DNA of 55,344 nucleotides from an uncultured virus (IMG/VR IMGVR_UViG_3300007523_000006) (Duplodnaviria; Heunggongvirae; Uroviricota; Caudoviricetes), in the IMG/VR virus record IMGVR_UViG_3300007523_000006, positions 62,001 through 117,344 of that record. One strand, written 5' to 3'. Positions 3,326 to 27,932 of this stretch are shown here, in pieces (the first letter of the stretch is position 1; every line of letters begins with the position of its first letter). A model generated the notes under the pieces. That model did not search any database. It had not been told where the DNA came from and saw only the letters and a list, made by a program, of their open reading frames with translations. Both the position numbers and the translations under genes were made by a program.

Positions 3326-3628
3326 ATGCAAACAGTAGGTGATGCAACAAAATCCATCATGAGTTCCCCGCATTGCAAGGCAGTTATTCCTTGTCCAGTA
3401 GTATGTCTACAGGTCTTCAAAACAACGGAGTGCGATTCTCGGTCGCTTGAAGAACTCGTCCTGAAGCGAAACGAAGTTCAAAAACTGTTGCAAGATAACA
3501 ACAAACTTAAAAGAAAAGTTCACGCTGCCCAAGAATTCTTGGACAGACTTCAAAATAGTCTGCCCAAGAATTCTTGGACAGACTTCAAAATAGTCTGCCC
3601 AAGTATTCTTGGACAGACTTCAAAATAG
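3326..3628 (+). CDS. 5' part of a gene interrupted by a 35-bp tandem repeat expansion
   Basis: ATG at 3326 after GGAG. Same frame as 3644..4177, and the stop codon lies inside repeat copy 3. Confidence 0.55.
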   Translation: MQTVGDATKSIMSSPHCKAVIPCPVVCLQVFKTTECDSRSLEELVLKRNEVQKLLQDNNKLKRKVHAAQEFLDRLQNSLPKNSWTDFKIVCPSILGQTSK

Positions 3629-3663
3629 TCTGCCCAAGTATTCTTGGACAGACTTCAAAATAG
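3525..3663. repeat. About 4 tandem copies of a 35-bp palindrome-containing unit
   Basis: Unit CTGCCCAAG(A/T)ATTCTTGGACAGACTTCAAAATAGT, with no spacers. Contains CCAAGAATTCTTGG and an AGACT-N7-AGTCT hairpin. Confidence 0.95.
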
Positions 3664-4284: not shown

Positions 4285-5937
4285 TTACTTAGGCTTAACC
4301 AGCGTATATCGCACAACTCGTACTTGTCCAAGTTTGATAATCGGCTGAATCATAGTTTCGCCGACCTGAAGTGAACCTTTGGTGCGAATAAAATCAGCCA
4401 TCCGGTCTTTGACCAACCGCATATCTTCACCAGGACAGATCATTTTGAACATATCCCTCAGCGTAAATACATAACCATCATCATTTAGATCAGCCCATTT
4501 TGTGATAGAATCCAAAATTTCTGTTCCAATCGTTCGACCTGCAATAGATTGGGCCGAATTCCTCGCCGCCTTAATGAAATTAAGGGCTGAAATTGGAAAT
4601 TGTTCTTCATTGACCGAATGGCATCGCTCAAGTTCTTCTTCTTTAAGATATGCCGAGAGCATTCTCTCCACTCGCTTATAAAGCAGAGCCACAGCATCAG
4701 CACTTGTTGGAGCGCTTGTCATCGTTTCCTTGAGGTATCTTCGCAAAGAACGCAGGGACGTGGTTCCTGGCTGTCTCGAAATGGTCTGCCTCTCGACCTT
4801 TTCACCATCGGTCAGAAGATAATCATAGGCATATTCCAACTTTTCTTTGCTGATGCCATAAACGTATGCCCTAAGAAACACGGCCTTGACAATGCCCATT
4901 CCAACTCTGCGTTTTTGTCCATCCGTGTAACGAGACAACAGGTCATTGAGCCAAGTCAACGGTTCTTGGAAATGGTCAATCATCTTCCTAAGAGTCTTGA
5001 AGCTGAATTGAGTATTCTCTTGCTTTCCTCTGCTATAAGCGACCCTTATTACAGTTGCATTTTTGTTGTTGTACAATGATTCATTAGGATTGTTGCCAGC
5101 CATTGTTTCTGCGTCGTCCATAGTTCGACCGGCTCCGGTATCAATTACCGGCACTTCTTCGTCGGAAATACGACGACGAGTCATAACTCGAATCGACTTG
5201 CCAGATAATAGGCAAGCCAAAGAGCGATGACAACCATTTCTGATGCCGTCATGATTGAACAGGAACATTGAATCACCGATGTAGTAATTTTTTTGTTCAA
5301 TGTCTTGAATAAGGCCAAACACTTTGCCTTCTCGCACTTTGCGATTCGTGGCATTCATCACGATCAACCAAGCGATTTCCGGCGTAATTGTCTCTTCAGA
5401 GTAATCACGAGGATCGCTTTCGCTAATCCTTTTGTATTCAGCCCAATCCTTTTCTGTGGGGGTCAGCTTTGGAAAGGACATCCTAATTGATTTGGGAATC
5501 CAATTAGGAATATTGAAGTTAAATCCTGCGGACGACGACAGTAAATCAAGCTGAACCTTTGGTTCGCTCATTTTTAGTTCCTTGAAAATAACACTCGAAC
5601 AAAAACCTGAGTCGGTAAGACATTCAGGTAACTCCACATCAATTAGGCGATGGTACTCAATTCCAAATTTTCGATCAATCCAATTTTGGCGCATTTCGAC
5701 AATCAGAGAAATTAGCTCTTGGTCCAAGTAAAACCATTCTTTATGGCTGTTGATGTAATGAAAATATGTATGAAGGTAATCTTCATCGGACAATGTTCCC
5801 GGATAAATAGCCAACAAAACCTGCTTTTCATCGGGCGACATGCCGCTTAACGTAAAAATACGATCAGGCAAACTATTGCTATGACCGATTTTAACCTTTT
5901 TAAGCTGTGGCGAATAAAGAAAATAAACATATCCCAT
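4285..5937 (-). CDS. GIY-YIG (T5orf172-like) domain fused to a ParB-like domain protein
   Basis: N-terminal GYVYFL..VKIGHS..R...E..LH..F...KEWF. Central NRKV...NGCHRSLAC...IDTGAGRT. An internal ATG at 5571 has an AAGGA SD. Confidence 0.65.
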   Translation of the reverse strand: MGYVYFLYSPQLKKVKIGHSNSLPDRIFTLSGMSPDEKQVLLAIYPGTLSDEDYLHTYFHYINSHKEWFYLDQELISLIVEMRQNWIDRKFGIEYHRLIDVELPECLTDSGFCSSVIFKELKMSEPKVQLDLLSSSAGFNFNIPNWIPKSIRMSFPKLTPTEKDWAEYKRISESDPRDYSEETITPEIAWLIVMNATNRKVREGKVFGLIQDIEQKNYYIGDSMFLFNHDGIRNGCHRSLACLLSGKSIRVMTRRRISDEEVPVIDTGAGRTMDDAETMAGNNPNESLYNNKNATVIRVAYSRGKQENTQFSFKTLRKMIDHFQEPLTWLNDLLSRYTDGQKRRVGMGIVKAVFLRAYVYGISKEKLEYAYDYLLTDGEKVERQTISRQPGTTSLRSLRRYLKETMTSAPTSADAVALLYKRVERMLSAYLKEEELERCHSVNEEQFPISALNFIKAARNSAQSIAGRTIGTEILDSITKWADLNDDGYVFTLRDMFKMICPGEDMRLVKDRMADFIRTKGSLQVGETMIQPIIKLGQVRVVRYTLVKPK

Positions 5938-16904: not shown

Positions 16905-17222
16905 TTATTGATTTTGCATATCGGGCTTATCGGGCTTTTCCTGTCCGTCTCCACTGAGAACTCTTTCCAAAACGTCCCAGACGTTGTATGCTTTGAGCTT
17001 CTGAGGAGCGGTGCCACCAGCCGGTGCGCCAGGCATCCCTCCCATCGGTGGAGCGCCCATGCCCATTCCACCACCCATCGGTGGCATTCCACCCATTGGG
17101 GGAGCGCCGCCAGCAGGCAGTAATGCCCCAGGACCACTGATTCCACCAGCCCCGCCCGGTGGAGGCGGTGGTGGTGCAGCTTCGTTCAGTTTGAATTCGA
17201 GAAATTTCTTGAAGGTATTCAT
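16905..17222 (-). CDS. Pro/Gly/Met-rich small protein, putative internal head protein
   Basis: N-terminus MNTFKKFLEFKLNE, with TACATA-N5-ATG. Confidence 0.65.
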   Translation of the reverse strand: MNTFKKFLEFKLNEAAPPPPPPGGAGGISGPGALLPAGGAPPMGGMPPMGGGMGMGAPPMGGMPGAPAGGTAPQKLKAYNVWDVLERVLSGDGQEKPDKPDMQNQ

Positions 17223-17362
17223 CACCTTATGTAGTGACGAAAATCGGAAATTTCCCAAAAGGATCGAACCTGAATCGTTTTTGACTCTCTAAGGTATCTG
17301 AAGCCAAGTCGCTGGAAGTCTCGGAACCGACAAGTGCGTTTTCAACTTTGTCGAGAAGTAAC

Positions 17363-17391
17363 TTTACAAGTGACAAAAGCCGTGGTATGAT
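17363..17391 (+). promoter_or_regulatory. Sigma70-like promoter
   Basis: TTTACA-17 bp (...CGTGG)-TATGAT. Confidence 0.65.
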
Positions 17392-17397
17392 ACCAAC

Positions 17398-17675
17398 GTC
17401 CTGATCGGACAACGCTTCTTGTGAGTCTGGGCGTGTGGGGCTTGCCTCATTATCAGACGAGGGTGGGAGTCAACCTAATGACCGGGTTTTAATGTTTGCA
17501 CCAAAGCATAAGCAAGCGTCGGCTTCTATGGGTTGTCTGTGCCGTAATCAGACCACCCGGCTTCTATGGGTTGTCTGTGCCGTAATCAGACCACCCGGCT
17601 TCTATGGGTTGTCTGTGCCGTAATCAGACCACCCGGCTTCTATGGGTTGTCTGTGCCTCAATCAGACCACCCGCC
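17398..17675 (+). ncRNA. Candidate structured RNA of unknown class
   Basis: Begins about 7 nt after the promoter and has no convincing ORF. Pairings GTCC/GGAC, ACGCTT../..AAGCGT and four hairpin repeats. Confidence 0.35.
17521..17672. repeat. 4 tandem copies of a 38-bp hairpin unit
   Basis: Unit GGCTTCTATGGGTTGTCTGTGCCGTAATCAGACCACCC, last copy with a loop variant. Stem GGGTTGTCTG/CAGACCACCC, no spacers. Confidence 0.95.
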
Positions 17676-17705
17676 TGCGAGTTGAATAAAATTTCAGATT
17701 CCGTC

Positions 17706-17734
17706 TTGAAATTTTGTTTCGAGACGACTACTAT
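17706..17734 (+). promoter_or_regulatory. Promoter of the attenuated tRNA/EF-Tu region, overlapped by an inverted repeat (possible operator)
   Basis: TTGAAA-17 bp-TACTAT. The dyad CGTCTTGAAA-N5-TTTCGAGACG covers the -35 box. Confidence 0.6.
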
Positions 17735-17782
17735 AACAGACACAAGCGAACAAAACGTCCGCACAATCAATTGGAGTTCATC

Positions 17783-17863
17783 GTGAACACTTTATCCCTC
17801 AGTCTATCGCTCTCTTATTCCTTGCTATCATTTAGCAACGGAGAAGGCTGCGTCCTGACTTAA
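17783..17863 (+). CDS. Attenuator leader peptide MNTLSLSLSLSYSLLSFSNGEGCVLT
   Basis: GGAG SD 6 nt before GTG. Codons 4-18 are all Leu/Ser/Tyr/Phe and use varied synonymous codons. Confidence 0.8.
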   Translation: MNTLSLSLSLSYSLLSFSNGEGCVLT

Positions 17864-17936
17864 AGGGACAATTGTGGGGAAGAATAAACCCCCGGCAGCT
17901 TTCTCCAGAAATGGAAAAGCTGCCGGGGGTTTTTTT
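17840..17936 (+). terminator. Attenuator: antiterminator strand plus intrinsic terminator
   Basis: Terminator AAACCCCCGGCAGCTTT../..AAAGCTGCCGGGGGTTTTTTT at 17886-17936. GGAGAAGGCTGC (17840-51) can pair with GCAGCTTTCTCC (17895-906) in the terminator 5' arm. Confidence 0.85.
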
Positions 17937-17941
17937 AGTTT

Positions 17942-18031
17942 GGGAGTAAGGCGACTGCTGGTTGTGTCGCACCTGCCTGTAAAGCAGGGCCTACAAGGTA
18001 AACATCGCAGGTTCAATTCCTGCTGCTCCCA
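17942..18031 (+). tRNA. tRNA-Tyr(GTA), long variable arm, no encoded CCA
   Basis: Acceptor GGGAGTA/TGCTCCC, anticodon arm CCTGC-CTGTAAA-GCAGG, T arm GCAGG-TTCAATT-CCTGC. Confidence 0.85.
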
Positions 18032-18103
18032 CTGTGTACGTCAGATTTATTGTTGCGTCCTCACTCTTGTAGTGCGGAGGCAACTAATGAAAGAATAACA
18101 AAC

Positions 18104-18175
18104 GGATCGGTAGCTGAGATGGAGTATCGCTGGCCTGAAAAGCCGGAGACGAGGATTCGAGCGACTCCCGATCCA
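18104..18175 (+). tRNA. tRNA-Phe(GAA)-like with degenerate T arm (possible pseudo-tRNA)
   Basis: Acceptor GGATCGG/CCGATCC and anticodon arm CTGGC-CTGAAAA-GCCGG. T stem GAGGA/GACTC is imperfect. Confidence 0.6.
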
Positions 18176-18187
18176 CTGAAAGGAACA

Positions 18188-18748
18188 ATGATGGAACCGA
18201 TTTATTTGCCATCTGCTGGCAACGATATGAGCAGAGTGGTTAACTCTATTTTCGATGAAACGAAGGGTCTTGAATGGCTGACCGAGAGGTCTGCCCGGAA
18301 AGAATACTTCATGTCCACGAAAGACAGAGAGTATAGCTACGGGAACAGACATCAAGGCGACGTAATGTACAGAAGCAAGCCATTCAGTTTTTTAGTGGGA
18401 CAGTTTATGGAGTACATAAACGAAACACAGAAATCTGAATTCAATGTTTGTTTTCTGAACCGCTACGAAAACGAACAACAGCACCTTGGATGGCACGCTG
18501 ATGATTTTCCGGGAATGAGAGCCGATCAGTCAATCGCCGTGTTGTCGTTGGGAGCAGAACGGGAAATATGGTGGAAGGAAAAATCCTTCAAAGGAATTAT
18601 TCCACCAGAAAATAAACAACTGTTGGAACACGGCAGCATATGGATTATGCCTGTTGGATTTCAAGATGTTTATCTTCACAAAATTCCAAAACATGGAAAG
18701 CCTTGTGGAGAAAGGATCAGTTTGACATTCAGAAGTTTTGTTGATTGA
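18188..18748 (+). CDS. alkB: AlkB-family 2OG-Fe(II) dioxygenase
   Basis: LNRY, LGWHADD (HxD), SLGAER, HKIPK and RISLTFR. Start follows an AAGGA SD downstream of the Phe-like tRNA. Confidence 0.88.
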   Translation: MMEPIYLPSAGNDMSRVVNSIFDETKGLEWLTERSARKEYFMSTKDREYSYGNRHQGDVMYRSKPFSFLVGQFMEYINETQKSEFNVCFLNRYENEQQHLGWHADDFPGMRADQSIAVLSLGAEREIWWKEKSFKGIIPPENKQLLEHGSIWIMPVGFQDVYLHKIPKHGKPCGERISLTFRSFVD

Positions 18749-18845
18749 CGGTAGAAGTCTGTATGTTGTCCACCGGCTTGCCGAGTTCAACGGGACTCTG
18801 AGCTAATGACTCAGACGAAAGATTGATGCTCCGATCAACAAAAAT

Positions 18846-18920
18846 GGCACGGTGATGCAATTTGGCAGACATCTCACGCTTAGAACGTGGGTTCTGTGGG
18901 TTCGAGTCCCACCCGTGTCA
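18846..18920 (+). tRNA. tRNA-Leu(TAG) with short variable loop
   Basis: Acceptor GGCACGG/CCGTGTC, A73, TCACG-CTTAGAA-CGTGG, 5-nt variable loop, GTGGG-TTCGAGT-CCCAC. Confidence 0.85.
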
Positions 18921-18936
18921 CTTTCCTGGAAAACAA

Positions 18937-19022
18937 GGGTTCTGTTCCTCATGCCTGACTGTAAATCAGGTGACAAAAAATTTTGAGGCGGCTGTCGAGG
19001 GGTTCAACTCCCTCAGAACCCA
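18937..19022 (+). tRNA. tRNA-Tyr(GTA)-like RNA lacking a D arm, with enlarged variable region
   Basis: Acceptor GGGTTCT/AGAACCC. Only 10 nt precede CCTGA-CTGTAAA-TCAGG. T loop TTCAACT. Confidence 0.6.
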
Positions 19023-19061
19023 CTTCGGCTTTACAGCCGAATTTGATGGTGATAGAATCAT

Positions 19062-19138
19062 GCCCAGGTGATGCAACCTTCGGTAGACATCCGATACTCA
19101 AAATATCGGTTTTACGGGTTCGAGTCCCGTCCTGGGTA
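19062..19138 (+). tRNA. tRNA-Leu(CAA) with short variable loop
   Basis: Acceptor GCCCAGG/CCTGGGT, CGATA-CTCAAAA-TATCG, 5-nt variable loop, ACGGG-TTCGAGT-CCCGT. Confidence 0.85.
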
Positions 19139-19154
19139 CTTTGCGGAGAATGTG

Positions 19155-19685
19155 ATGGAAGAGAAATGCACGGAGTTGACTCTCGAACAATGTGAATTTG
19201 CTTGCAAGATGGTTTGCCAGTGGATGAATATTTGCGAGGACAATAAGCGTGGATCAAGTTCGGCTGATGTCGATCATTCTGCCCTTTTGCGAAGGATGTT
19301 GATGGGTGGGACGGTTCATAAAAATCCTCCACCAAAAAGATTCAGTTATCCTTGTTGGGGATTGGTTGAACAAGAAGAGATCGAAATCCAAGACATGCAC
19401 GAATATGACATAGACATTGAAGGCATGAAAGGAACTGTGGTTGTCGATCAACATCGTGAATACGAATGGGTGGATAAAGAAAATAAAATCATCAAACACA
19501 CACGATTGGGCATTGAGTATCAATATTCCGAACGTGAAGTAACACCAGATGCCAGACGTTTACGAAAGGGTTTGAACCCCGAAGACCATAAATACACTGG
19601 TAAATTTTTGAAGAGATTGAATGATCCACCAACAGGAAAAGAAGAAGTGTGGAAAATGCAAGTGAGTGGCTTTTGTTCAGGATGA
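19155..19685 (+). CDS. Hypothetical protein
   Basis: GGAG SD after the tRNA. The ORF-track 5' extension overlaps the tRNA and was trimmed. Confidence 0.65.
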   Translation: MEEKCTELTLEQCEFACKMVCQWMNICEDNKRGSSSADVDHSALLRRMLMGGTVHKNPPPKRFSYPCWGLVEQEEIEIQDMHEYDIDIEGMKGTVVVDQHREYEWVDKENKIIKHTRLGIEYQYSEREVTPDARRLRKGLNPEDHKYTGKFLKRLNDPPTGKEEVWKMQVSGFCSG

Positions 19686-19839
19686 ACATCAGGCTGACCC
19701 CGGTAGCGTAACTCGCCAATGATCGGTAAGTAACATCATCAAGGAAGATGAAACCACTAAGGAATAAAATGATGAAAAATAATCACGAAAGTTTGGGTAG
19801 CGTCTTTTAAGTGCATTCCGCACTTAGGAGAATCGCTAC

Positions 19840-20292
19840 ATGGCAAAAAAAAGATGGTTCTCGGCATTCCTTCGGTATCCGAGAACAACACAAGAACTAA
19901 GAGCAAACCAAGACCGCAATGATCCCTATGTCCGTGGAAAGAGACGAAACCTTCCCACGGCATGGGACGATCGGTTTGTTCGCAAGCAAAAATCATGGAA
20001 ATATCTCGGTCGAGATCATCAATACCGAGAACAAGGTCATGGTTACGAGTGGCATGAATTCCAATACTCGTGGCGTGATACTGAACGGAGAATGATCGCC
20101 AGAACCATCATGGACTGGCTGGAACGACTTGGATGCTTCTACGAAACGATTCGTGGCGGCTTCCGTTGGTTTGGACCAGCATGGTGGATCAAAGGTCATT
20201 GTCGCTGTTGTTATACACAATTGATTTCTGACACCCAATCCGAAGAGTTCGGAGATTGGTGTCCAAACCCGGACTGTTGCTTCCTTAACTAA
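19840..20292 (+). CDS. Hypothetical basic protein with C-terminal Cys cluster
   Basis: AGGAG SD. R.PRTTQE...RGKRRNLPTAWDD...KSWK motif. Confidence 0.65.
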   Translation: MAKKRWFSAFLRYPRTTQELRANQDRNDPYVRGKRRNLPTAWDDRFVRKQKSWKYLGRDHQYREQGHGYEWHEFQYSWRDTERRMIARTIMDWLERLGCFYETIRGGFRWFGPAWWIKGHCRCCYTQLISDTQSEEFGDWCPNPDCCFLN

Positions 20293-20369
20293 GAGAAAAA
20301 CCATGAACAAATTCACTCAAATCCTTGGACTCATCAAACCTATTACCCAAACCCATTATGGAGGGAACG

Positions 20370-20669
20370 ATGAGAAGGTGGAACGAGGATTACAAGATCA
20401 CTCTGCGTGAGTGGAAAAAGCACCGTCGCTCTCATGTTGAGAGTAACAAAAGCTGGATAAATCGCATCGGAGTCAGCGCCTATGTCGTTGATTGTGAGCG
20501 TGATGAACAAAAAGGTCGATTCCGTAAGAAAGACGCTTTCGATTGTGGCAATACGCAGTGCAGAATTTGTCACAGCGACAAGTATCCCAAGCGGGAAAAA
20601 CACGAACACGAATTGAAGTCCGATGTGGACTTCAAAGAACAACTCAAAGAGTTGCGTGGTGAAGAGTAA
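20370..20669 (+). CDS. Hypothetical basic protein with CGNTQCRICH zinc motif
   Basis: GGAGGG SD and open reading frame. Confidence 0.6.
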   Translation: MRRWNEDYKITLREWKKHRRSHVESNKSWINRIGVSAYVVDCERDEQKGRFRKKDAFDCGNTQCRICHSDKYPKREKHEHELKSDVDFKEQLKELRGEE

Positions 20670-20703
20670 AAGAAGACGAAGGTTTGAAAAAGCCTTCGTT
20701 TGA

Positions 20704-20780
20704 GTCCAAGTAGGCAAACCTCCGGCAAAGCCGCCAGATCGAGAGTCTGGTGTTTGTGGGTTCGACTCCCACCTTGGACA
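20704..20780 (+). tRNA. tRNA-Leu(GAG) with short variable loop and C at position 33
   Basis: Acceptor GTCCAAG/CTTGGAC, CCAGA-TCGAGAG-TCTGG, GTGGG-TTCGACT-CCCAC. Confidence 0.8.
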
Positions 20781-20857
20781 TTTTCTAAATCCTGTTCAAC
20801 AATCAACGAGAATTGGGAGTGTCAGACAATGCAGTTAGAAAACGGCAGTTAGAAAAC

Positions 20858-20931
20858 GGCTCAGTAGGCAATCGGCAGACCACCCAGGCTTAAACCCAGG
20901 GATGCTGTGAGTTCAAATCTCACCTGAGCCA
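20858..20931 (+). tRNA. tRNA-Leu(TAA) with short variable loop
   Basis: Acceptor GGCTCAG/CTGAGCC, CCAGG-CTTAAAC-CCAGG with one A-A mismatch, GTGAG-TTCAAAT-CTCAC. Confidence 0.8.
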
Positions 20932-20946
20932 CTTGATTTTTAATAC

Positions 20947-21028
20947 GGCTTTGTGGTGAAATTGGCAAACGCACAGCACTCAAAATGCTGCGTCGAAAGA
21001 CTTGTGGGTTCGAGTCCCACCAAAGCCA
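20947..21028 (+). tRNA. tRNA-Leu(CAA), canonical long variable arm
   Basis: Acceptor GGCTTTG/CAAAGCC, CAGCA-CTCAAAA-TGCTG, variable arm GTC-GAAA-GAC. Confidence 0.92.
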
Positions 21029-21146
21029 CTGTTTCGATTTCTGGATCTGGCTCTTACTCGTTGTGAGTAGAAACACCTTTTTTTGGTGGGGTTATAGAAG
21101 TCAAACCTCCAACGGTGATCTCGTAAAGATCACAGGAGAAAGTAAA

Positions 21147-22319
21147 GTGAAGAAAGTCCACATCAATGTCGGAACGATTGGTCACATTGACCACGGGAAG
21201 ACGACTCTGACAGCAGCAATTCTCGCTGTTCAGTCCGAGAAGGGTTACGCAAAAAAGAAAGCATACGGCGACATCGCCAAGGGCGGCACCGTTCGTGACG
21301 TTACCAAAACGGTAACGATCACCACGTCGCACGTTGAGTATGAGACGGATACCCGTCACTATGCTCACATTGACTGCCCCGGTCACGCCGACTATGTAAA
21401 AAATATGATTACCGGGGCTGCTCAAATGGACGGCGCTGTATTGCTCGTCAATGCAGCAGACGGTCCTATGCCTCAGACGAAAGAGCATATTCTGCTCGCT
21501 CGTCAGGTGGGCGTGCCGGATATTGTAGTATTCCTCAATAAGTGCGATCTTGTCAAAGACGAAGAATTGCTGGAACTGGTCGAGATGGAAACAAGAGACT
21601 TGCTGACGAAGTATGGCTTCGACGGCGAGAAGACTCCGTTTATCCGTGGAGCAGCAAAACCTGCCTTGGATAATCCTGCTGATCCCGCAGCAAGCAAGTG
21701 TATTGTAGAATTGTTGGCGGCTCTGGATTCTTATATTCCTGACCCCAGCCGTTCTATCGACCGTCCCTTCTTGATGCCCGTCGAAGGTGTTCACAATATC
21801 GAAGGTCGTGGCTGCGTAGTCACGGGCAAGATCGAGCAAGGAACCATCACGGTCGGAACCAAAGTTGAAATCCTTGGGTTGACTGATATTCTGGAGTCAG
21901 TTGTCACCAGCGTCGAGGCTTTCAATAAGCAACTGGAATATGGAGAAGCTGGACAGAATGTCGGTTTGCTGCTGAGAGGCATCAAGGCCGATCAAGTTCA
22001 GCGTGGACAGGTTGTGGCACAACCACGAAGCATCAAGCCTCACACCAAGTTCAAGAGCGAAATTTACGTCTTGGGCAAGGATGAGGGCGGGCGTCACACC
22101 CCGATCTTCAATGGTTACAAGCCACAGTTCTTCCTCAGAACTACCAACGTCACCGGCCTTGTCCAAATGCCGGAAGGAATTGAGTTGGTCATGCCGGGCG
22201 AGAACACTTGCCTGTTTATCACCCTGGATAAGCCGATTGCTATCGAAAAAGGTAGTCACTTCGCCATTCGTGAGGGTGGTATGACAGTCGGTTCTGGCGT
22301 CGTGACGGAATTGCTGTAA
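21147..22319 (+). CDS. tuf: Elongation factor Tu, Planctomycetota-type
   Basis: [34 protein letters not shown] and EGGRHTP. GTG start after AGGAG. Effector loop [17 protein letters not shown]. Confidence 0.97.
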
Positions 22320-27736: not shown

Positions 27737-27818
27737 GGCCCTGTGGTGGAATTGGAATACACATGGGACTTAAAATCCCACGCCGAAAGGATTGCGGGTT
27801 CGAGTCCCGCCAGGGCTA
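27737..27818 (+). tRNA. tRNA-Leu(TAA), canonical long variable arm
   Basis: Acceptor GGCCCTG/CAGGGCT, TGGGA-CTTAAAA-TCCCA, GCGGG-TTCGAGT-CCCGC. Confidence 0.92.
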
Positions 27819-27851
27819 CGTTTTACAAGATGCCTAAAACGTGGTAAAACT

Positions 27852-27932
27852 GGCCGAGTGGTGGAATGGCATACACGATGGTTTTAGGAACCATTGCCGC
27901 AAGGCTTGCAGGTTCAAGTCCTGTCTCGGTCA
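27852..27932 (+). tRNA. tRNA-Leu(TAG), canonical long variable arm
   Basis: Acceptor GGCCGAG/CTCGGTC, ATGGT-TTTAGGA-ACCAT, variable arm GCC-GCAA-GGC. Confidence 0.92.

Follow-up and report, generated by a model that had tools for sequence, protein, structure and literature searches.

The stretch of DNA analysed here, referred to as the window, comprises 55,344 nucleotides of an uncultured virus and corresponds to the last 55 kb of the 117-kb viral record G000, for which CheckV gives a completeness of 24%. An identical copy of the region sits in a 462,616-base metagenome contig (L052), and the phage is therefore regarded as a jumbo phage. Transcription in the window is divergent and centred at about position 17300. 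Genes with Pfam matches to SMC/AAA ATPase, metallophosphatase, ribonucleotide reductase and CTP synthase domains lie on the minus strand to the left of this point, and on the plus strand to the right follow tRNA genes, an AlkB-like oxygenase, further tRNA genes and an EF-Tu homologue. At the head of this plus-strand array, a short open reading frame (ORF) and an intrinsic terminator stand directly before the first tRNA gene. This element, a putative leader-peptide attenuator of a phage tRNA array, is the subject of the present analysis.

The leader and its tRNA array

The features of the element and of the sequence ahead of it are as follows.

17363..17391, plus strand: best upstream match to a sigma-70-like promoter (10/12, with a TG extension), an alternative start for the leader
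17520..17673: four tandem 38-bp repeats, each with a 5-bp inverted repeat of 9-bp spacing
17706..17734, plus strand: promoter-like site proposed in the initial annotation (9/12 consensus match)
17774..17777, plus strand: four-base Shine-Dalgarno match, 5 nt ahead of the GTG start
17783..17863, plus strand: leader ORF with GTG start, 26 codons, stop at 17861-17863
17792..17836, plus strand: control block (codons 4-18), consisting exclusively of Leu, Ser, Tyr and Phe codons
17813-17827 with 17833-17847, plus strand: 1:2 hairpin of 14 bp (-16.2 kcal/mol for 17808-17852)
17840..17879, plus strand: region 2, the antiterminator strand, pairing with the 5′ arm of the terminator
17882..17936, plus strand: intrinsic terminator, a 24-bp helix of 17882-17907 with 17912-17936

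Every part of this anatomy that had been proposed in the initial annotation (a promoter-like site, a Shine-Dalgarno sequence, a 26-codon leader with specified codons 4-18 and three competing RNA pairings) could be located. Shine-Dalgarno-like motifs precede 45 of the 104 long ORFs in the phage, and such a motif together with a short ORF in the 5′ leader is what an attenuator would require. The control block contains seven Ser codons (all six types), six Leu codons (four types), one Tyr codon and one Phe codon. This run of 15 Leu, Ser, Tyr or Phe codons is the longest in the six frames of the 117-kb record, where four runs reach at least 10 codons, and represents the cluster of control codons expected of leader-peptide attenuators. 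Because two of the Ser codons are of the AGY type, the block is not a mere pyrimidine-rich stretch.

The leader RNA is predicted to form the competing pairings of such a switch. The 1:2 hairpin, acting as anti-antiterminator, would overlap the control codons. Region 2 extends between positions -22 and +19 with respect to the leader stop codon, a placement in which a ribosome at the stop would be expected to mask it, and the 2:3 pairing joins 17840-17851 to 17895-17906 (12 bp, one G-U) with an extension of 5 bp between 17875-17879 and 17890-17894. The intrinsic terminator, situated between the leader ORF and the tRNA genes, has an energy of -38 kcal/mol (17885-17936) and a run of seven T (17930-17936); only 5 nt separate its end from the tRNA-Tyr gene at 17942, leaving no space for a promoter between the two. 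The leader RNA as a whole (17741-17940) folds with a z-score of -7.5 (0/200 shuffles), and the duplex of the terminator 5′ arm with the leader reaches -28.7 kcal/mol versus -15.2 ± 3.0 in shuffles, none of 300 being as stable. In the nascent RNA 17741-17912, in which the 3′ arm of the terminator is not yet made, the 2:3 state is calculated at -50.3 kcal/mol versus -42.3 kcal/mol for 1:2, so that the antiterminated fold is the minimum-energy structure of this transcript by 8 kcal/mol.

Downstream of the terminator, the following features are encountered.

17942..18031, plus strand: tRNA-Tyr (GTA), 90 nt, long variable arm
18104..18175, plus strand: tRNA with anticodon GAA (Phe), 36.5 bits, not recovered by ARAGORN
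18191..18748, plus strand: AlkB-like 2OG-Fe(II) oxygenase (PF13532, E 8e-18), inside the array
18846..18920, plus strand: tRNA with anticodon TAG (Leu), short variable arm
18937..19022, plus strand: weak tRNA-like element, 24 bits and sub-threshold, anticodon loop GTA by eye
19062..19138, plus strand: tRNA with anticodon CAA (Leu), short variable arm
20704..20780, plus strand: tRNA with anticodon GAG (Leu), short variable arm
20858..20931, plus strand: tRNA with anticodon TAA (Leu), short variable arm
20947..21028, plus strand: tRNA-Leu (CAA), long variable arm
21144..22319, plus strand: EF-Tu homologue
27737..27932, plus strand: two tRNA-Leu genes, TAA (27737-27818) and TAG (27852-27932), with long variable arms

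Nine tRNAs lie above the Rfam threshold, six of which are also recovered by ARAGORN, and their anticodons are, in order, GTA, GAA, TAG, CAA, GAG, TAA, CAA, TAA and TAG, those of the GAA, CAA (19062) and GAG tRNAs being taken from cmscan alignments. The earlier statement that the Leu, Tyr and Phe anticodons read the non-Ser control codons holds for all eight of these codons, each of which can be decoded by a tRNA of the array; conversely, the Watson-Crick codon of each of the four Leu anticodon species occurs in the block. CTT and CTG, which together account for 34% of the Leu codons in the long ORFs of the phage, do not occur in it. Under phage codon usage, the probability of finding six Ser codon types in seven draws is 0.05 and that of all six Leu codons falling within the four Watson-Crick-matched types is 0.08, values that are suggestive and come from tests picked after the fact.

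Leaders before other phage tRNA arrays

A homologous leader turned up in the pooled scan of array heads in the IMG/VR record G006, a jumbo phage of 288 kb and 62% GC. This 25-codon ORF (L156, minus strand, 4769-4846, with its hairpin at 4695-4746) begins with Met-Asn-Thr like that of the window, continues with a Leu/Ser/Tyr/Trp/Phe block and finishes with a Gly-rich end containing Cys. The two start regions align in DNA, with the ATG of G006 in the column of the window GTG, which supports the GTG as the real start. This alignment weighs more than the identities between leader peptides (50% to G006, and 59% over ~25 residues to the L136 leader of phage G002, described below), which are those of short, low-complexity sequences. 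The G006 hairpin (-39.7 kcal/mol, T-rich tail) lies 3′ of the leader ORF and is followed by tRNAs for Leu, Tyr, Ser, Phe, Leu, Trp, Leu, Ser, Ser and Ser. By manual count, 14 of the 24 G006 leader residues match this array, the Ser codons among them, and its lone Trp codon answers the tRNA-Trp; the window leader and the window array are both devoid of Trp. Region 2 of G006 occupies the same place, again in Gly codons, and is complementary to its own terminator arm, whose sequence differs from that of the window: the own pairings amount to -23.5 kcal/mol (G006) and -28.7 kcal/mol (window) and the cross pairings to -16.1 kcal/mol both ways. G006 contains at least one second unit, in which a strong hairpin, preceded by an ORF of mixed composition, is placed 26 nt before a large mixed array.

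Further leaders emerged when hairpins with T-runs were sought within 120 nt 5′ of 158 tRNAs in the fetched loci. In L015 and L016, a conserved short ORF with a Pro, Gln, Phe and Val core precedes a Pro, Phe, Pro, Phe, Val, Val array. The record behind L016, G002, is a complete AT-rich jumbo phage of 482 kb with 62 Rfam tRNA hits, in which the tRNAs are blocked by amino acid. Six of its nine fetched tRNA regions are headed by an ORF of 23-31 codons and a terminator, with the first tRNA 14-276 nt further on; the other three lack a leader and comprise one or two tRNAs apiece. The six units of G002, with the leader residues matching the respective block, are listed here.

L136, Leu/Ser block: 12/22 leader residues matching
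L139, Asn/Gln/Tyr block: 13/28 leader residues matching
L134, Met/Thr/Lys/Gly/Asn block: 19/30 leader residues matching
L141, Trp/His/Ile/Arg block: 9/26 leader residues matching
L140, Pro/Phe/Val block: 10/29 leader residues matching
L135, Asp/Cys/Glu/Ala block: 6/28 leader residues matching

Four more units were found in G003, an AT-rich jumbo phage of 371 kb, with residue matches of 37/43, 8/28, 21/37 and 7/17. When each leader was compared with its own array, the diagonal sum was 69 versus a permutation mean of 29.7 in G002 (1/720 permutations) and 73 versus 33.8 in G003 (1/24 permutations), and the codon level agrees in both phages. Among the homologous leaders of G002, L015 and G003, the C-terminus is kept and the control block shifts from Pro/Phe/Val to Pro/His/Gln as the array changes; the terminator-pairing stretch of the G003 Pro/His/Gln leader has changed along with its terminator. 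Choosing the longest ORF, or the first ATG downstream of the -7 box, was discarded, as each of these rules went wrong on some loci.

In the ten G002/G003 leaders, the terminator arm finds its best partner 1-41 nt 5′ of the stop. As partner for a terminator arm, the own leader ranked first of 11 in five cases and among the top three in eight, and the observed pairing sum was reached by none of 100000 random assignments with the window included and by 11 of 100000 without it. The geometry recurs as well: the stop codon is 23 nt from the hairpin in the window and 21-42 nt in nine of the ten other leaders, and the hairpin-to-tRNA gap on the same strand is 10 nt in the window and 13-276 nt in the other ten. 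This recurrence spans 35-62% GC and promoters of either Bacteroidota type (G002/G003) or sigma-70 type (window, G006), which suggests an old and widespread, though not universal, design in jumbo phages.

Searches by similarity yielded little beyond these phages. In blastn against phage records, only short tRNA matches in unrelated phages and no leader relative were obtained, and an exact search with the terminator returned one identical copy. The AlkB protein used alone as query led to the same contig and nothing further, and alignment searches over 48 viral and 80 metagenome AlkB loci revealed no DNA similarity to 17260-18190 beyond the identical copies. With the aligned Leu/Ser leaders as query, 137 stretches matched the pattern, of which one, again the identical copy, was confirmed; the alignment of the G002-type leaders recovered its two known loci and no others.

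As for the sequence ahead of the G002 leaders, near-identical Bacteroidota-type promoters (-7 box) are found ~50-215 nt 5′ of the ORF (L134-L141), a conserved A-rich element stands before the ORF, and some units carry a ~100-nt repeated hairpin between promoter and leader.

The proposed switch and its rivals

The anatomy, the competing pairings, the codon-anticodon match and the recurrence of such leaders before the arrays of other phages are seen directly. The attenuator reading is well supported by this anatomy and comparison, and we put at roughly 0.76 the probability that the element is a ribosome-mediated (leader-peptide) transcription attenuator gating the phage tRNA array. A trp/his-type attenuator with array-matched codons, as first proposed, is thus backed by the window itself, by the G006 homologue and by the ten leaders of G002 and G003. 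What we infer from this arrangement is that the leader is translated, together with the kinetics and the physiological trigger of the switch.

Briefly, transcription would start at 17706-17734 or at 17363-17391, and a ribosome would load at the Shine-Dalgarno/GTG site and read the test track of 15 Leu, Ser, Tyr and Phe codons. Rapid decoding would bring the ribosome to the stop (17861-17863), where it would cover region 2, so that the terminator would form and the polymerase would halt before tRNA-Tyr. Should no ribosome be loaded, region 2 would be sequestered in the 1:2 hairpin and termination would likewise result. A shortage of charged tRNA would instead stall the ribosome within the test track, melting the 1:2 hairpin and leaving region 2 free to pair with the 5′ arm of the terminator, with read-through into tRNA-Tyr, tRNA-Phe, AlkB and the Leu-anticodon tRNAs. 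The quantity sensed would be the charged cognate tRNA at the A site and the output more of that same tRNA; as the new tRNAs decode the test track, negative feedback would let supply follow demand.

Leader-peptide attenuators are known from the trp, his, leu, thr and pheA operons and the multivalent ilvGMEDA operon of enterobacteria. The element described here shares with these systems a short ORF with control codons, the 1:2, 2:3 and 3:4 pairings and an intrinsic terminator, and with ilv the sampling of several amino acids in one leader. It differs from them in being viral and in its controlled genes, which would be tRNAs and AlkB in place of biosynthetic enzymes; none of these makes or charges a sensed amino acid. 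Whereas the amino-acid operons are governed by amino-acid supply, the loop here would be closed by the decoder itself, which makes tRNA supply the sensible signal, and the interleaved types of control codon would sample several isoacceptors. The pheST (phenylalanyl-tRNA synthetase) operon of E. coli is likewise under the control of a leader-peptide attenuator, and here, too, a gene of the translation apparatus is attenuated via decoding of the cognate codon; pheST is, however, cellular, responds to a single amino acid and has a synthetase as its target, in contrast to the tRNA genes of the present case. T-box leaders (RF00230) resemble the element in that a choice between terminator and antiterminator reflects the state of a specific tRNA pool and governs translation-related genes, although a T-box leader requires no ORF and binds the tRNA itself.

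Phage tRNA genes are usually seen as constitutive helpers in codon usage and, lately, as spares against host defences that cleave tRNA. To our knowledge, next to nothing has been established about how phage tRNA genes are controlled. No description of leader-peptide or attenuator control of tRNA genes was found in the full-text literature searched, a corpus that lacks most subscription journals, so that an older report is possible. The consulted passages of one review (PMC4810235) make no mention of leader-peptide control of tRNA genes. If correct, the proposed mechanism would put a classical switch to a new use, in which decoding capacity is sensed and the decoder produced, giving a self-limiting homeostasis of the tRNA pool. 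The codon content of a leader would then be a readable label of the purpose of its array and would predict which host tRNAs become limiting, and such leaders could provide synthetic biology with compact, portable parts reporting the availability of chosen tRNAs.

Several results weigh against the attenuator reading or restrict its scope. The promoter is uncertain and the weakest part of the anatomy: the candidate sites are consensus matches, and the region holds 10 such sites versus 6.1 ± 2.2 expected, which is no enrichment. Folding with the ribosome-covered segments masked, proposed earlier as a check, left the terminator in the full-length minimum-energy fold at every simulated ribosome position. 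Since the terminator wins in the full-length RNA whatever is masked, the switch would have to be kinetic, as is the choice between folds in classical attenuators. The suggested search of relatives yielded leaders in G006, G002 and G003; within the lineage, the three copies of the leader (G000, G001/L003 and L052) are identical and give no 2:3 covariation. G006, the sole homologue, is distant, and its terminator cannot be matched to that of the window in a column-wise alignment. The antiterminators of two of the ten G002/G003 leaders do not surpass ~18% of shuffles. The residue matches of these ten leaders depend on an ORF rule (stop nearest the hairpin, most upstream ATG, up to 50 codons) that was fixed only after the pattern was seen, and on arrays defined by ARAGORN alone (54 of the 62 Rfam hits in G002).

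Serine poses a separate difficulty. Seven of the 15 control codons specify Ser, without a phage tRNA-Ser in the ~142 kb examined, and counted over the whole ORF, 9 of 25 leader residues match the array. The caveat of the initial annotation that the window holds no tRNA-Ser stands, and extends to the whole 117-kb G000 and to a second record of the phage (98 kb), which reaches 25 kb beyond G000; ~320 kb of the genome lie outside this view. Because the array of the G006 homologue carries four tRNA-Ser genes, the Ser codons of the window are probably control codons as well, the corresponding tRNA genes having either been lost or being kept in the remaining ~320 kb. Nor are unmatched Ser codons out of character, because unmatched residues commonly interleave in the blocks of other leaders, for example Gln in L140, Ser and Thr in one G003 leader, and Asn and Lys in L141.

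Regarding generality, a pooled test over the heads of 32 other arrays from the remaining loci was null (136 versus 135.4 ± 5.9, with 9836 of 20000 permutations at least as high), and terminator-based scans of G004, G005 and G007, in which tRNAs are scattered singly among genes, returned no convincing leaders. The leader system is not universal among phage tRNA arrays. Hairpins with a T-run directly before tRNAs also end ordinary protein genes (L106/L108 and L109) and, because of this, a hairpin before a tRNA proves nothing alone.

This last observation also speaks for the most serious rival, in which the ORF is an independent small gene (for a protein or an RNA) with its own terminator, the tRNAs are supplied by constitutive leak-through or other promoters, and the codon match is a by-product of pyrimidine-rich low complexity. 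The unmatched Ser codons fit this explanation, as do a Ser-rich run of 14 codons elsewhere in the record, in a non-coding frame, and the promoter-like site at 19030-19058, which could supply the distal tRNAs independently of the leader. We nevertheless consider it unlikely: the two AGY codons break the pyrimidine pattern and yet encode Ser, the antiterminator complementarity is far above that of shuffles, the G006 homologue has a different terminator and still a matching antiterminator, leader composition follows array identity in G002 and G003, and no promoter fits between the terminator and tRNA-Tyr.

Appreciably less plausible is that the peptide itself is the product, a micropeptide of ~25 residues with a function of its own and an amphipathic strand-turn-strand form made of Leu/Ser alternation and a Gly-rich turn. 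Both features are shared by the leaders of the window, G006 and G002 L136, and the L015 and G002 leaders differ synonymously, a pattern suggestive of selection on the residues. The leaders of other arrays in the same genomes differ, though, each following its own tRNAs, and the coincidence of the Gly codons with the antiterminator strand explains their conservation. A reversal of the logic, in which leader translation is needed for read-through because a ribosome behind the polymerase blocks the terminator and the array is on when translation is healthy, seems about equally improbable. Coupling of transcription and translation can suppress terminators; here, the stop codon is 23 nt before the hairpin, so that a terminating ribosome would cover region 2 and not the terminator, favouring termination. 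Least probable of all is a protein- or RNA-binding, riboswitch-like leader (T-box-like or set by a phage protein) with an incidental ORF: 17758-17880 does fold as a closed domain whose closing helix overlaps the antiterminator with its 3′ strand, as is typical of a riboswitch, and four tandem repeats with inverted repeats lie upstream, but neither the T-box nor any other cis-regulatory family scores close to its threshold (the RF00230 covariance model has no match at E up to 10 in 17200-21200, and the best non-tRNA Rfam matches score 22-26 bits versus thresholds of 49-60) and the way in which leader residues follow array identity would be left unexplained. The CopA-like, ErsA-like and His leader matches of Rfam were set aside as sub-threshold (22 versus 49 bits for the His leader) and driven by the terminator hairpin.

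Returning to the attenuator, the trigger could be host tRNA-cleaving defences, host shut-off or the codon demand of the phage, among which the sequence cannot discriminate. The idea that it senses mainly the loss of tRNAs of the long-variable-arm class (Leu/Ser/Tyr) fits poorly, given that four of the seven Leu-anticodon tRNAs lack a long arm and that the G002/G003 arrays cover all kinds of tRNA. A broader proposal, which we offer as speculative and would not rate as probable, is that the tRNA arrays of giant phages form codon-barcoded regulons, each leader sampling the anticodons it controls so that failing tRNAs are replaced. The leader of the window would then watch Leu, Tyr, Phe and host tRNA-Ser, and would co-induce an AlkB acting on RNA together with short-armed Leu tRNAs that a nuclease targeting long arms would miss. 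A phage so equipped would measure the decoding capacity of its host codon set by codon set, with host anticodon nucleases, host shut-off or its own codon demand as the cause of decoding failure.

Possible reach of read-through and further observations

The initial annotation proposed that the switch would turn on replacement tRNAs, AlkB and EF-Tu. For the proximal genes this is consistent with the map, on which tRNA-Tyr, tRNA-Phe, AlkB and tRNA(TAG) follow directly behind the terminator and AlkB separates the second tRNA from the third, no hairpin intervening. Read-through may extend to the distal tRNAs and EF-Tu, but the promoter-like site at 19030-19058 and a weak hairpin ahead of EF-Tu (21048-21069) make this uncertain. 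The 19030-19058 site is of the same type as that at 17363-17391 (10/12, TG extension), ends 3 nt before tRNA(CAA) at 19062 and has its -35 element in the loop of a 7-bp hairpin. The tRNA-Leu pair at 27737-27932 is probably outside the attenuated unit, because another gene and a terminator-like hairpin intervene. The phage EF-Tu shares 57-65% identity with its counterparts from many phyla and is uninformative on a planctomycete host.

The Leu-anticodon tRNAs of the window occur in two builds, four being short (74-77 nt, with a variable loop of 4-5 nt) and three long-armed (81-83 nt), and the anticodons TAA, TAG and CAA are each found in both. The discriminator position is A in all of them. The weak element at 18937-19022 has good acceptor and T arms, but its D arm is poor and its variable region long, and it may be a degenerate or unconventional second tRNA-Tyr. 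Unusual lengths are also found in G002, where tRNAs of 84-92 nt with Asn, Lys, Met, Glu, Trp, His and Gln anticodons adjoin normal ones of ~73-77 nt (L134, L135, L139 and L141); the 88-nt Asn(GTT) tRNA at L139:1306-1393 has a 4-bp variable-arm stem. In other phages, tRNAs with a CTA anticodon, labelled 'Pyl' by ARAGORN, were observed in L137, L138, L018, L048, L091 and L118. These are candidate amber suppressors, and some of the phages concerned may read TAG as sense.

AlkB-like genes are a repeated component of jumbo-phage tRNA arrays. Tyrosine and phenylalanine tRNAs flank the one at 18191-18748 on its 5′ side, further examples occur in L140, L144, L030, L109, L124 and L126, and 11 of 47 viral AlkB loci have tRNAs within 4 kb. 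Arrays headed by a leader include an AlkB gene in the window, G002, G003 and G006. This placement hints at a role of the array AlkB in tRNA repair or demodification rather than in DNA repair. The closer homologues of the window protein are P0001-P0011, at 68-83% identity.

One GC-rich metagenome contig may extend the leader family. Its ORF at L126:2730-2846 has 38 codons, is rich in Arg, Pro and Leu, and is followed by a strong GC hairpin that lacks a clean T-run; some 45 nt further on begins an array of Pro, Arg, Thr, Arg, Arg, Pro and Pro tRNAs, and a Leu array follows at a greater distance. This is a candidate member with a non-canonical terminator. A possible case of codon-matched small ORFs in the tRNA region of phage T5 was rejected, since by eye none of the 12 small ORFs translated there tracks its neighbouring tRNAs.

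The 38-bp repeats at 17520-17673 sit between the two candidate promoters of the leader. Their pattern has four matches in the window versus 0.01 expected and is found nowhere else in it, and the repeats may serve a dimeric regulator as tandem binding sites or form successive RNA hairpins in the 5′ untranslated region. A second set of four tandem repeats, of 35 bp and unrelated in sequence, is located at 3525-3663 and holds a 14-bp perfect palindrome just 5′ of a plus-strand ORF.

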